From contig JAHFKV010000001.1 in the NCBI GenBank assembly GCA_023245155.1, positions 267,034 to 331,033 on the forward strand: a stretch of DNA of 64,000 bases, given 5' to 3'. How positions within the stretch are numbered: the first letter of the stretch is position 1; every line of letters begins with the position of its first letter. The position numbers and the translations under genes are program-made. The notes under the pieces are model-generated. The model saw only the letters and a list, made by a program, of their open reading frames with translations. It ran no database searches and was not told the DNA's origin. The stretch comes from Candidatus Staskawiczbacteria bacterium (GTDB lineage: Bacteria > Patescibacteriota > Minisyncoccia > Minisyncoccales > Staskawiczbacteraceae). This document shows positions 1,570 through 54,347 of this stretch, piece by piece.

Positions 1570-2289
1570 ATGAACAAAAAAAATACATTAAAAAAAATAA
1601 AGGCGCTTGCATTAAATATAGACCACAATATTGCCTTTAAAGGTAAATCAAAGGGGAATAAACACTTGATGAGGGTTGTTCGTGTGGCAGAATTTTTGGC
1701 GCAAAAAACCGGGGCAGACCAATTTATTACCACAGCCGGAGCATTTTTACACGACACGGCGCTACCTTCCGGTAATGATTACAATTATTTGCAAAATAAG
1801 AAAATAGTAAAGCGCTTACTTAAAACATTTCACCTTAATCAAAATGAATTAGACTCCATTGCCGAGTGCGTGGCATCTCACGAGGGTACGGTCAAACCAA
1901 AAACCTTGGAAGCAAAAATTGTTCACGACGCTGATGTTCTTGAAAAGGCGGGATTGTTGGGAATTATCCGTCATACCTGGAAATTGACCAATTCGGGTAA
2001 GATTAACCACAACATGGTAAAAGATGAGGATGTTAAAAAAGTTTTGGATCACATAGTTTGGCGCAGTAAGAGATTGCAGACGCCGATGGCAAAAAAAATA
2101 CAAAAATATGTCACGGTATCCATAGATAGGCGGCGGGCAAAAGTGATAGTTTCATTGACGGCTGGTATGGCGTTTAAGGGCATTATTACCGAAAAAATAG
2201 CTGTAGCGATTCGAAAACATCTTACCAAACAACAAAATAAAAAGCTAAAAGAGCAGCTAAGTCTTAGTTACTTTTCTAGGTTTAAGTAG
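1570..2289 (+). CDS. HD-domain phosphohydrolase
   Basis: H...HD signature (KHLMRVVRVAEF...AFLHDTA) and a second HDADVLEK. I prefer ATG 1570 to the GTG at 1492 because 1492-1569 is an AT-rich spacer. Confidence 0.8.
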   Translation: MNKKNTLKKIKALALNIDHNIAFKGKSKGNKHLMRVVRVAEFLAQKTGADQFITTAGAFLHDTALPSGNDYNYLQNKKIVKRLLKTFHLNQNELDSIAECVASHEGTVKPKTLEAKIVHDADVLEKAGLLGIIRHTWKLTNSGKINHNMVKDEDVKKVLDHIVWRSKRLQTPMAKKIQKYVTVSIDRRRAKVIVSLTAGMAFKGIITEKIAVAIRKHLTKQQNKKLKEQLSLSYFSRFK

Positions 2290-2298
2290 CCCAAAGGC

Positions 2299-2327
2299 TT
2301 GACATGGTTACTTTACTTTGCTAAAGT
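2299..2327 (+). promoter_or_regulatory. promoter TTGACA-N17-TAAAGT with an embedded TACTTTACTTT box, 6 nt upstream of the ATG
   Basis: TTGACA at 2299-2304, TGc-TAAAGT ending at 2327, ATG at 2334. A near-identical copy lies at 3733-3761 on the minus strand. Confidence 0.6.
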
Positions 2328-2333
2328 GGTTGT

Positions 2334-2654
2334 ATGGACTTCAATAGTAAAGAAAGTAGACAATTAATCAGCGCCATTTTGACGCTTAAGACCTATGACG
2401 AAACCAAGCGTTTTTTGCGTGATTTAATGACGGAAAAGGAAATTACCGAGTTTACCAAACGTTTCACCGCTGCCCAAATGCTGGCTGAAAAAGTGCCTTA
2501 TTCTGTGATTGAGAAAAAGACCGGTTTAAGTTCCACTACCGTGGCCCGTGTTTCCAAATGGCTGAATGGAAAAGAAGGCGGTTACAAAAAAGCTATTCAA
2601 AAACTGCATCATCATACATTCCATCCAAAAAAGGAGGGGATTGCCTTGATGTAA
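2334..2654 (+). CDS. YerC/YecD-family TrpR-like DNA-binding protein
   Basis: 106 aa. FLRDLMTEKEITEFTKRFTAAQML...KTGLSSTTVARVSKWL matches the Trp-repressor-like YerC family pattern. Confidence 0.85.
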   Translation: MDFNSKESRQLISAILTLKTYDETKRFLRDLMTEKEITEFTKRFTAAQMLAEKVPYSVIEKKTGLSSTTVARVSKWLNGKEGGYKKAIQKLHHHTFHPKKEGIALM

Positions 2655-2673: not shown

Positions 2674-2708
2674 AACCCTCTCCTTGTTTGGAGAGGGTTT
2701 TTGTTTTC
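2674..2708 (+). terminator. rho-independent terminator
   Basis: AACCCTCTCC (2674-2683) pairs with GGAGAGGGTT (2690-2699), followed by TTTGTTTT. Confidence 0.75.
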
Positions 2709-2751
2709 CGTACCCTGAACGGCGAACAAATGTCTTTTAGGAGACCGTGTC

Positions 2752-2853
2752 ATGAAATGTTCTTTGCACAAAGGTGGCGAACACACTCGTGAGGGTGGCG
2801 AACATCGCCGGCAGGGTGGTGAGCACCTCCGCCAAGGAGGTGAGCATCGCTAA
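2752..2853 (+). CDS. 33-aa repeat microprotein MKCSLHKGGEHTREGGEHRRQGGEHLRQGGEHR
   Basis: AGGAG at 2739-2743 sits 8 nt before the ATG. Four GGEHxRx units whose GGEH cores differ only at synonymous third positions. A strong + strand terminator follows. Confidence 0.6.
   Translation: MKCSLHKGGEHTREGGEHRRQGGEHLRQGGEHR
2773..2850 (+). repeat. 21-bp tandem repeat (3.7 copies), coding
   Basis: GGTGGCGAACACACTCGTGAG / GGTGGCGAACATCGCCGGCAG / GGTGGTGAGCACCTCCGCCAA / GGAGGTGAGCATCGC. Confidence 0.9.
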
Positions 2854-2878
2854 CAGTGACCGCTAGGTCACTATGCGT

Positions 2879-2919
2879 GGGTAGTTTGGGGCTTGTCCTC
2901 AAACTACCCTTTTTATTTT
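2879..2919 (+). terminator. rho-independent terminator (+ polarity) overlapping the 3' end of the convergent gene
   Basis: 13-bp stem GGGTAGTTTGGGG (2879-2891) pairs with CCTCAAACTACCC (2897-2909), followed by TTTTTATTTT. A smaller hairpin lies at 2855-2872. Confidence 0.8.
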
Positions 2920-3726
2920 CTGTGCCAGGAGAAAGGCTTCTTGTCCTGGTTGATTCTCATTGCCAGAAAAAAGAATTACACTGTTTCTTTTTGCACCCAC
3001 TTTTATTTTTCCGTCAGTGCCGATAATCTGGCCTCTGCGTACTTTTTCAAAATCTTGAAAATACTTTGTAAGAGTGAAAATGGGATTTTTTGTCACATAC
3101 ATATGATATACATTCATGTAAGATTGTTTTTTAGTTTTTAGATTATTGGCAATGTGCCCACGAGCCTTAAGAAAAGCGATAATAGCATCTTCCGCCTTTT
3201 TTAGAGACCGCGGGTCGTTGTGTTGGCCGCATTCAATACAAATTCCTATTTTGCTGATTTGGTTCATGTAATAATCCGTACCACCAGGTTGCACATTGTC
3301 AAAACCCGATACAACTAGCTTAACCGGTAGGTACTTTGCAATATCAAAGCCATTAGCTTGGCAGATGACAAATGCCTTGTTTTTCACTTTACGGCTTGAA
3401 TGTAGATCAAGAAGTGCATCAACCTTATTGAGATACTTTTTTAAAAACTGGGCACGTTGATATTCGTAACTCCTTCTATCTTTTTTTGGAATTCCAGTGC
3501 GATATTTAAACATCCGGTTTAAATCAGCCTCGGTAAACCGCACCTTTCTCTTTATAGCTTCGGGATTTCCATAACCAAAAAACACCCTGCCCTTTTGTAT
3601 GGTAAGAGAGGGGAGTAGTCTTTTGAAAGCTTCTACGCCACATGGTTCATTGCCATGAACTCCCGCTAGAATCATGCTAGTTGGCCCCCCATTCCTCCCC
3701 TTTATTTGAATGATTTTTTCTAGCAT
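2899..3726 (-). CDS. succinylglutamate desuccinylase/aspartoacylase (AstE/AspA) family zinc hydrolase
   Basis: Contains AGVHGNEPCG, DLNRMF and LDLHSS motifs; 275 aa. Confidence 0.85.
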   Translation of the reverse strand: MLEKIIQIKGRNGGPTSMILAGVHGNEPCGVEAFKRLLPSLTIQKGRVFFGYGNPEAIKRKVRFTEADLNRMFKYRTGIPKKDRRSYEYQRAQFLKKYLNKVDALLDLHSSRKVKNKAFVICQANGFDIAKYLPVKLVVSGFDNVQPGGTDYYMNQISKIGICIECGQHNDPRSLKKAEDAIIAFLKARGHIANNLKTKKQSYMNVYHMYVTKNPIFTLTKYFQDFEKVRRGQIIGTDGKIKVGAKRNSVILFSGNENQPGQEAFLLAQKIKRVV

Positions 3727-3731
3727 GATAT

Positions 3732-3761
3732 TACTTTACTAAAGTAAAGTAGCAAAGTCAA
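3732..3761 (-). promoter_or_regulatory. promoter TTGACT-N17-TAAAGT with palindrome TACTTTACT-TT-AGTAAAGTA, 6 nt upstream of the ATG
   Basis: On the minus strand: -35 at 3761-3756, -10 at 3738-3733, start codon at 3726. Perfect 9-bp inverted repeat at 3732-3751. Confidence 0.6.
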
Positions 3762-53999: not shown

Positions 54000-54347
54000 A
54001 TGCAAATAATAATTAAAACTAAGAATTTTGAACTAAGCAGCGCGTTGGAAAAATTTGTAAATGATAAAGTGCAGAAGTTGGAAAAGTTTTCCCATGCGCA
54101 AAGCCAAGAGTTGTTTGTTGAACTGGAAAAAGAAACTAACCATCATCGCAAGGGAGATTTATTTCTTGCCATCATCCAGTTGCAATTGCCGGGGAAGATG
54201 TTAATAGCTCGCTCCCACGGCGAAGATTTGAATAAAGCTATTATTGACGCTAAAGACGAGTTAGAAATAGAAATTAAAAAGTATAAAACCAAAACCATTG
54301 AAACTCCTCGCCGGAAGATACGGAAATCCGGCGCCCAAAACCTTTAA
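54000..54347 (+). CDS. hpf: ribosome hibernation-promoting factor (short HPF/RaiA)
   Basis: MQIIIKTKNFELSSALEKFVNDKVQKLEKF; 115 aa. Confidence 0.88.
   Translation: MQIIIKTKNFELSSALEKFVNDKVQKLEKFSHAQSQELFVELEKETNHHRKGDLFLAIIQLQLPGKMLIARSHGEDLNKAIIDAKDELEIEIKKYKTKTIETPRRKIRKSGAQNL

Follow-up and report, generated by a model that had tools for sequence, protein, structure and literature searches.

Does a 33-codon open reading frame (ORF) made of four tandem heptads, lying between two larger genes of Candidatus Staskawiczbacteria bacterium, encode a protein on which selection acts, and what could such a product do? The ORF was studied in a stretch of 64,000 nucleotides (nt), hereafter the window, taken from contig JAHFKV010000001.1. 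A first-pass annotation made from the letters had described this micro-ORF at 2752-2853 as missing from a program-made list of ORFs, with an AGGAG box 8 nt upstream and two hairpins downstream, the second being a 13-bp stem plus T-run in plus polarity. All these elements were found again, and the gene calls on public copies of the same DNA likewise skip the micro-ORF. The exact translation of its 33 codons, from an ATG start, is MKCSLHKGGEHTREGGEHRRQGGEHLRQGGEHR, and an exact look-up of this peptide returned no record. Judged from the comparisons given below, the micro-ORF is in all likelihood a real, selected protein-coding gene. Its immediate features are as follows:

2752-2853, plus strand: micro-ORF, with an N-terminal MKCSLHK followed by four heptads GGEH-x-R-x that start at 2773, 2794, 2815 and 2836
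2739-2743, plus strand: Shine-Dalgarno (SD) box AGGAG, 8 nt 5' of the micro-ORF ATG
2851-2853, plus strand: TAA stop codon, directly after the last repeat
2855-2872, plus strand: 7-bp hairpin immediately 3' of the stop codon
2879-2919, plus strand: terminator 2, a 13-bp stem (2879-2909) followed by TTTTTATTTT, in plus polarity, overlapping the stop codon of a convergent AstE-like gene

Tandem Repeats Finder reported a 21-nt period at the micro-ORF, and the pattern GGNGGNGARCAY occurred four times in the window, always inside the micro-ORF at 21-nt spacing, against a shuffle expectation of 0.30 (four occurrences were reached in 0 of 100 shuffles). The four cores read GGTGGCGAACAC, GGTGGCGAACAT, GGTGGTGAGCAC and GGAGGTGAGCAT, and their variable columns are positions 3, 6, 9 and 12, all of them synonymous, as the first-pass annotation had stated for the GGEH cores and as was confirmed for all four units. 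Four variable columns out of 12 would all fall at third positions with a chance probability of 1/495. Within-genome core variation was confined to third positions in all three species that carry the repeat, the corresponding probabilities being 1/495 for the window and 4/220 and 1/84 for the other two.

Because the convergent gene pair that flanks the micro-ORF, a hisR-like regulator gene and the AstE-like hydrolase gene, is widespread, contigs encoding AstE homologues were fetched for comparison. The homologues of the flanking genes were named as Patescibacteria, with Taylor-, Kaiser-, Colwell-, Specht- and Ryanbacteria among others. In the closest relative, represented by contigs L002, L003 and L004 (AstE 75% identical), a 246-bp spacer encodes MKRSFRQGGEHTCEGGEHRRHGGEHNIREGGEH; the box AGGAGA precedes this ORF by 8 nt, and a terminator of its own, of different sequence, comes after it. 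A third species, represented by contig L171, has an AstE-like protein 71% identical to that of the window and 76% identical to that of L002, and encodes a peptide ending in KSGDHRKGDHTCEGDHRRQGDHRRRGDH, with a stop codon and then a terminator; this contig ends inside the ORF, and the 5' part is missing. At the position of terminator 2, L002, L171 and a more distant contig, L176, all have a hairpin of different sequence with a T-run.

The ORFs of the window and L002 differ by 15 third-position changes, as against six at first and three at second positions, and the 48 core nucleotides by six differences, every one synonymous. By the method of Nei and Gojobori (NG86), the rates of non-synonymous (dN) and synonymous (dS) substitution were 0.123 and 0.967 for the whole micro-ORF (dN/dS 0.127), and 0 and 1.04 for the cores alone. 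The flanking genes gave comparable ratios in the same comparison (hisR-like 0.059, AstE-like 0.065). Indels within the micro-ORF are all multiples of three, while the adjacent upstream spacer has indels of 9 nt and 4 nt. The first-pass annotation had attributed the repeat to selection on the peptide and not to a DNA-level process, a view upheld by the syntenic homologues of the two other species, which keep the frame, have in-frame indels only and show synonymous drift in the cores; the frame-breaking indels or non-synonymous drift on which it had let its proposal depend were not seen in them. On this comparative evidence, the GGEH cores are shown to be under strict purifying selection, and the ATG, the SD box, the stop codon after the last repeat and the following terminator to be maintained in related species. 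Since Gly-Gly-Glu is as strictly conserved as His, the function would lie at the level of the peptide.

These figures bear directly on whether the element could be a non-functional 21-nt tandem DNA repeat in the convergent spacer, open by chance and either untranslated or without function. The micro-ORF is very short and GC-rich (57% GC, against 44% in the window), so that several frames are open, and perfect (GGEHxxx)n-coding minisatellites do arise by chance in unrelated metagenome contigs; those matches, however, are perfect, recent DNA repeats that lack the pattern of synonymous divergence, whereas the units of the micro-ORF have diverged from one another at synonymous sites only, in three species. 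Many relatives lack the element or have it in decayed form, and a close strain (L001) has a non-synonymous polymorphism in one core, both of which a mere repeat would accommodate. Such a repeat would not be expected to combine a between-species dS of about 1 with a core dN of 0, nor to conserve ATG, SD box, stop position and frame with ORF indels in multiples of three next to a spacer whose indels are not. With these contrasts taken together, we regard a functionless DNA repeat as improbable.

The repeat units differ between species in one systematic respect. The linkers TCE and RRQ of L171 match those of L002 and the window in the same order, and yet every core of L171 is GDH, in an 18-nt unit (L171 994-1080, minus strand), in place of the GGEH of the 21-nt unit in the window (2773-2850) and L002. 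The five GDH cores in turn vary at third positions only (GGG/GGT/GGC, GAT/GAC and CAT/CAC). A switch between GGEH and GDH in all cores, with orthologous linkers retained, needs either a parallel change in each unit or a conversion limited to the cores, and the units of the micro-ORF appear to evolve in concert, with GGEH throughout two species and GDH throughout the third. This switch offers an unusually clear case in which to study how selection acts on all units of a repeat peptide at once.

The SD box sets the micro-ORF apart within its own genome. Among the 50 non-overlapping long ORFs of the window, none had AGGAG or GGAGG upstream and one had a 4-mer core, with a background of 1.1% per 17-nt interval. 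A strong SD box was found in five of the 494 small ATG ORFs of the window, two of them intergenic, the micro-ORF included, which places it among the rare ORFs of its genome that use such a box. In L002 the box is kept as AGGAGA, and in L176 as AAGGAGGAA. The genome is practically SD-free, and in many of its genes a -10-like box precedes the ATG by 4-8 nt, suggesting that leaderless mRNAs are widespread. The other intergenic small ORF with a strong SD box (54143-54298, minus strand) encodes a hydrophobic peptide of 51 residues, beginning MVLVLYFLISISNSS, and may be another uncalled small gene.

Whether the conserved object is an RNA or a zone of overlapping transcripts was considered next to its coding potential; candidates would be a structured element in the 3' part of the hisR mRNA, a repeated RNA motif to which a protein binds, and complementarity between hisR read-through transcripts and the 3' untranslated region of AstE. 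The region folds better than its shuffles (z = -6.5 over 2660-2925 and z = -3.1 over the micro-ORF), but the fold energy comes mostly from the terminators, and the hairpin inside the ORF, formed by CACCUCC and GGAGGUG, is not conserved in L002 or L171. Terminator 2 lacks a T-run in minus polarity, so AstE transcripts may run antisense across the micro-ORF as far as a minus-strand terminator-like site at 2699-2674. The repeats also contain the SD-like strings GGAGG and GGTGG. An RNA motif, in contrast, would not be expected to vary at every third base only and at the same time to retain ATG, SD box and stop codon, and selection on RNA or overlap in place of the peptide is very unlikely. A dual role, as RNA and as coding sequence, could still be accommodated. 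As a separate observation, in the predicted fold of the window alone (2826-2843), the CACCUCC of the linker in unit 3, which pairs with the GGAGGUG of unit 4, is identical to the usual anti-SD core of 16S rRNA.

Reading frames other than that of the micro-ORF were compared in the same alignment. Frames -0, -2 and +1 are open over the repeat in all three species, and the candidates for a selected product would be a hydrophobic antisense ORF of 36 residues at 2737-2847 on the minus strand, MLTSLAEVLTTLPAMFATLTSVFATFVQRTFHDTVS, or a minus frame with CSPP repeats. The latter shares its wobble positions with the plus frame (nine synonymous and seven non-synonymous differences between the window and L002), but it contains four stops in L171, where GAT codons are read as TGA; in the window it has no start before units 2-4, its first start leaving these units outside the ORF, and further downstream the window and L002 read the terminator 1 region in different frames. 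Frame -0 has three synonymous and 15 non-synonymous differences, with cores that vary (VFAT, VLAA, VLTT), and frames -2 and +1 have ratios of 0/16 and 2/14. No alternative frame has a conserved start or SD box, and frame +0 alone stays open in each of the three species while changing mostly at synonymous sites. Coding in another frame or in antisense, rejected by these stops, missing starts and non-synonymous excesses, is hardly credible.

Wider searches were made for further members of the family. A phmmer search with the peptide against 1.84 billion representatives gave six weak matches, all to low-complexity repeats without relation to it, within long proteins that were mostly eukaryote-like or spurious. 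A three-unit DNA pattern gave 38 matches in metagenomes, where the L002 contig was the sole true homologue and the rest were perfect minisatellites, although GDH-type or irregularly spaced homologues would escape this pattern. A two-unit degenerate DNA pattern in GTDB genomes yielded, among the matches listed, chance matches from GC-rich genomes, a result that is silent on the distribution of the gene. As these wider searches added no members, the family is by this sampling narrow, young and lineage-restricted, being intact in three sampled lineages that are about one dS apart. The spacer of another contig, L178, shows a suggestive local similarity to the micro-ORF (ATGAAA, then TGTTCTTTCGGCGG, then GGTGTGCACCTC) in an alignment that is not convincing. 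No relevant literature was found on GGEH repeats, or on His-rich small proteins or SD usage in Patescibacteria.

The peptide itself is unusual in composition. His makes up 15% of its residues, against 1.8% in the long ORFs of the genome, and stands at codons 6, 11, 18, 25 and 32, never adjacent to another His. Gly accounts for eight of the 33 residues (24%), the net charge is about 0 to +2, and the mean Kyte-Doolittle hydropathy, calculated by hand, is about -1.9. AlphaFold2 predicted no secondary structure (predicted template modelling score, pTM, 0.14). What stays invariant is a regular succession of Gly, acidic residue and His, with a linker that carries Arg (or Cys). When small ORFs with at least 10% His and at least two [DE]H dyads were sought in the window and in related loci of about 70 kb in total, only the micro-ORF and its counterparts in relatives were returned.

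What the peptide could be for is best approached from its neighbours, which are arranged as follows:

2299-2327, plus strand: promoter of the hisR-like gene, TTGACA-17-TAAAGT, with the operator ACTTTA-N6-TAAAGT inside it (2310-2327) and the ATG 6 nt past the -10 box
2334-2654, plus strand: gene for a TrpR-related repressor of the HisR/YerC family, 106 residues (PF01371, TIGR02531)
2674-2709, plus strand: terminator 1, a 10-bp stem plus TTTTTGTTTT, between the hisR-like gene and the micro-ORF
2700-2730, plus strand: hairpin 2, whose 5' arm overlaps the T-run of terminator 1
2899-3726, minus strand: convergent gene for a zinc hydrolase of the AstE/AspA family, 275 residues (PF24827)
3733-3761, minus strand: promoter of the AstE-like gene, TTGACT-17-TAAAGT, with a second perfect HisR-type operator (3733-3750) and the ATG 6 nt past the -10 box

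The upstream regulator matched Pfam PF01371 (Trp_repressor fold) and scored 63.9 bits against TIGR02531 (yecD_yerC), for which the cut-off is 42.2. Its best match in PDB was 3G1C, from E. eligens (E 3.7e-13), and E. coli TrpR was unmatched at E<=0.01. The structure 3G1C is treated as HisR, and YerC-type proteins as histidine repressors, by Ashniev et al. (PMC9413887), who also report that HisR of R. gnavus requires L-histidine for DNA binding in vitro and that the HisR operator follows the consensus cacTTTAnnnnnnTAAAgtg, a 20-bp palindrome. By these profile and structure matches the "TrpR-like" gene is assigned to the YerC/HisR family and is closer to HisR than to TrpR; by analogy, histidine is presumably the co-repressor of the window regulator.

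That the two flanking genes share an operator and have the micro-ORF between them, as previously claimed, was borne out by two perfect ACTTTA-N6-TAAAGT sites, ACTTTACTTTGCTAAAGT at 2310-2327 and ACTTTACTAAAGTAAAGT at 3733-3750, each lying between a -35 box and an ATG. With its ATG 6 nt after the -10 box, the hisR-like mRNA is probably leaderless. Identical sites were counted at six related loci; the layout recurs in L002 (747-764 and 2178-2195), L005 (3977-3994 and 5141-5158), L009 (3977-3994 and 5782-5799), L171 (89-106) and L177 (13-30 and 1909-1926), with a TTGAC -35 box and a leaderless ATG. The downstream convergent gene was correctly recognised as that of a zinc hydrolase: its product of 275 residues matches PF24827, of the AstE/AspA family, and contains the segments HGNE and DLHS, which we take to be the zinc-ligand positions of that family. 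It scored below the NCBIfam equivalog cut-offs for both aspartoacylase and AstE and thus forms a separate subfamily. The recurrent operators make this hydrolase a predicted, conserved member of the HisR regulon across Patescibacteria, new to the HisR literature, and its substrate may be a histidine derivative.

In two further contigs (hisR 66% identical), a tRNA-His(GTG) gene follows the same terminator 1 and occupies the micro-ORF slot (L178 2647-2720, L179 878-951). Given the family of the regulator, the operators and this tRNA-His adjacency, the locus around the His-rich micro-ORF is very probably histidine-responsive. Terminator 1 is kept in L002, L172 and L178. Hairpin 2, GTTT(T/G)CC(G/A)...(C/T)GGC(G/A)AAC, stands directly after it in the window (2700-2730), L002 (about 1763-1805, minus strand) and L172 (3372-3394), and is preserved with two-sided changes in three lineages, whichever gene comes next. 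A GNAT acetyltransferase gene lies between hisR and the convergent AstE-like gene in L009 (4849-5373) and L177 (886-1491), an arrangement that hints at an acylation/deacylation pair under HisR control. The micro-ORF was also considered as a remnant of this GNAT gene, and no similarity was found.

The explanation that we favour joins a translated micro-gene, HisR-controlled co-expression and a putative metal-binding peptide, and as a whole it has about an even chance of being right. Neither a promoter nor a HisR operator was recognised between terminator 1 and the SD box, and the micro-ORF would therefore most likely be a distal cistron on the mRNA initiated at the HisR-controlled promoter of the hisR-like gene, reached by read-through of terminator 1. 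Such a position would explain its need of an SD box, unlike the leaderless, SD-less genes of the genome. The micro-ORF would be induced together with the convergent AstE-like hydrolase when HisR leaves its operators, presumably at low histidine. Its product would be a short, unstructured and nearly charge-balanced peptide in which four spaced acid-His dyads after flexible glycines could act as repeated ligand sites, which is the weakest step of the proposal. The ligand would most plausibly be a divalent transition metal (Zn2+, Ni2+ or Cu2+), and the peptide may act as a small buffer or chaperone of the metal, possibly on behalf of the zinc enzyme under the same control. On chemical grounds, metal sites are the simplest reading of acid-His dyads that recur along a flexible backbone; even granting a coding gene, metal binding is a tentative assignment that we hold to be somewhat improbable.

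Several observations weigh against this explanation. The micro-ORF has no recognisable promoter of its own in the roughly 50 nt between terminator 1 and the SD box, and a canonical-looking terminator precedes it, so that read-through is required unless an unrecognised promoter exists. In the near-identical strain L001, core 3 carries GAG->GGG, a change from Glu to Gly (window 2822, L001 1696). The slot is empty in L005-8, with a spacer of 3 bp, and is occupied by the GNAT gene in L009-11 and L177. In L172, hisR and terminator 1 are almost exactly as in L002, yet another gene follows and the micro-ORF is absent; the micro-ORF is dispensable in most Patescibacteria. In L176 (hisR 76% and AstE 60% identical), the position of the ancestral start reads CTGTGTCATAGAAA, and, with that ATG lost, the micro-ORF is reduced to 11 codons, MRDHKRVDHGH, for which the core-like GGAGGAAGCCAT serves as SD box and ATG. 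As to the putative metal binding, it is drawn from composition, 15% His is far under the content of Hpn-type proteins, and a conserved Arg in every unit is unusual for a cation-binding peptide. A His-rich product expressed at low histidine is counter-intuitive, and no family or structure match in phmmer, Pfam, NCBIfam or PDB searches backs any function.

L001 and the window differ by two single-nucleotide polymorphisms in 2.8 kb, the core 3 change and one at 3188 in the AstE-like gene. Past 3945, the otherwise identical contig diverges completely from the window, suggesting that the strains differ by an indel or rearrangement in the region upstream of the AstE-like gene. Contig L176 (3321-3870 and 2133-2870) departs from the usual convergent layout by an inverted AstE-like gene; it also has a gene for a Y1 transposase immediately before hisR, and its 549-bp spacer is partly filled by an uncalled ORF of 81 residues (3438-3683).

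The neighbouring HisR/YerC-type repressor gives a second possible meaning to the His content of the peptide, one that the first-pass annotation had overlooked. The micro-ORF could be a histidine-supply device of the HisR regulon, either a leader-like gauge of His-tRNA charging or a His-rich peptide that modulates HisR as a co-repressor mimic or anti-repressor. It would then report histidine status in histidine-auxotrophic Patescibacteria, having arisen recently in the 3' flank of hisR, in the slot that holds the tRNA-His of a sister lineage. The micro-ORF indeed lies directly 3' of a gene of the HisR/YerC family, both flanking promoters carry HisR-type operators, and histidine is the co-repressor of HisR (PMC9413887); a His-rich ORF on a transcript induced at low histidine is what a histidine sensor would be expected to look like, and in L178 and L179 a tRNA-His(GTG) gene takes the place of the micro-ORF behind terminator 1. 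The layout of L176 is the most leader-like, its 11-codon ORF with three His being followed by a hairpin and terminator and then, about 30 nt on, by the AstE-like gene on the same strand and without an operator of its own. In the window, L002 and L171, by contrast, there is no same-strand downstream gene, the next gene being convergent, and the folds of the window and L002 showed no antiterminator pairing as an alternative to terminator 2, while for L176 one weak alternative of 6 bp can be sketched by eye. His codons occur every six to seven codons, versus three to seven consecutive ones in known His leaders, and the Rfam family RF00514 (His_leader) gave no match at the gathering threshold or at E<=10. 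A pure codon sensor would not demand that Gly-Gly-Glu be as invariant as His, which it is (core dN = 0), and an interaction between peptide and HisR is speculation. We consider a histidine-supply device, in either form, rather unlikely.

The putative metal-binding peptide was set beside known systems. The kinship with KGG-repeat stress proteins (GsiB/YciG) that had been suggested found no support: hmmscan against Pfam-A, which includes the KGG family, returned no families at E<=10 for the peptides of the window, L002 and L171, and NCBIfam likewise none. A PDB sequence search with the micro-peptide gave no matches at E<=10, and no Rfam match was obtained over the element. Like the KGG-repeat proteins and hydrophilins, the peptide is small, very hydrophilic, Gly-rich, repetitive and probably disordered, but its repeat is GGEHxRx, with no KGG signature, and induction by stress is not known for it. 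Hydrophilins are defined by more than 6% Gly and a mean hydrophilicity index above 1; the micro-peptide falls loosely within this class (24% Gly, hydropathy about -1.9), membership of which implies no homology.

Hpn and Hpn-2 of H. pylori and SmbP of Nitrosomonas are closer in character, as small proteins with repeated His units and acid-His dyads, and SmbP shares the heptad period. SmbP consists of ten 7-residue His repeats and is helical, and Hpn contains a GGEH string. The micro-peptide has no detectable homology to either, lacks a signal peptide, carries a conserved Arg per unit and, at 15% His, stays far below the content of Hpn; its units are Gly-rich and predicted to be unstructured, in contrast to the helical SmbP. 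In prion-type octarepeats (PHGGGWGQ x4) and shepherins, a His beside Gly-Gly binds Cu2+ through the imidazole and backbone amides. The likeness to these, four tandem units of 7-8 residues with one His next to Gly-Gly, is an analogy only, since sequence and organism are unrelated and the residue order of the micro-peptide differs, with an acidic residue before His and Arg after it. Leaders and attenuators of his operons (RF00514, and candidates in Firmicutes, PMC9413887) share with the micro-ORF a very short His-enriched ORF, hairpins plus a terminator and a histidine-regulated locus, and in L176 also the position just upstream of a HisR-regulon gene. They differ from it in that its His codons are spaced, no antiterminator and no RF00514 match were found, and the three species with an intact micro-ORF have no downstream gene on the same strand.

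As far as can be told from the sequences compared, the micro-ORF represents a new lineage-restricted family of microproteins in a newly recognised HisR locus of Patescibacteria. Small proteins are systematically missed, especially in uncultured Patescibacteria (candidate phyla radiation), and the micro-ORF provides a clean comparative case of a selected 33-codon repeat ORF. The locus shares the operator core TTTA-N6-TAAA and the autoregulation of hisR with the HisR (YerC) regulons of Firmicutes and Actinobacteria. Known HisR regulons comprise his biosynthesis genes and histidine transporters (PMC9413887), whereas here the partner is a hydrolase of the AstE/AspA family, and hisR is followed by a His-repeat micro-ORF or a tRNA-His, neither of which is described in that work. 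The concept of the HisR regulon, so far held for Firmicutes and a few other phyla, would hereby extend to Patescibacteria with entirely different targets, and the locus offers a testable entry to the handling of histidine, or of histidine-bound metal, in host-dependent bacteria. The C-terminus of the HisR-like protein itself (window 2616-2651) is a His-rich tail, KLHHHTFHPKKEGIALM, and similar HHH motifs occur in L002, L175, L176 and L178.

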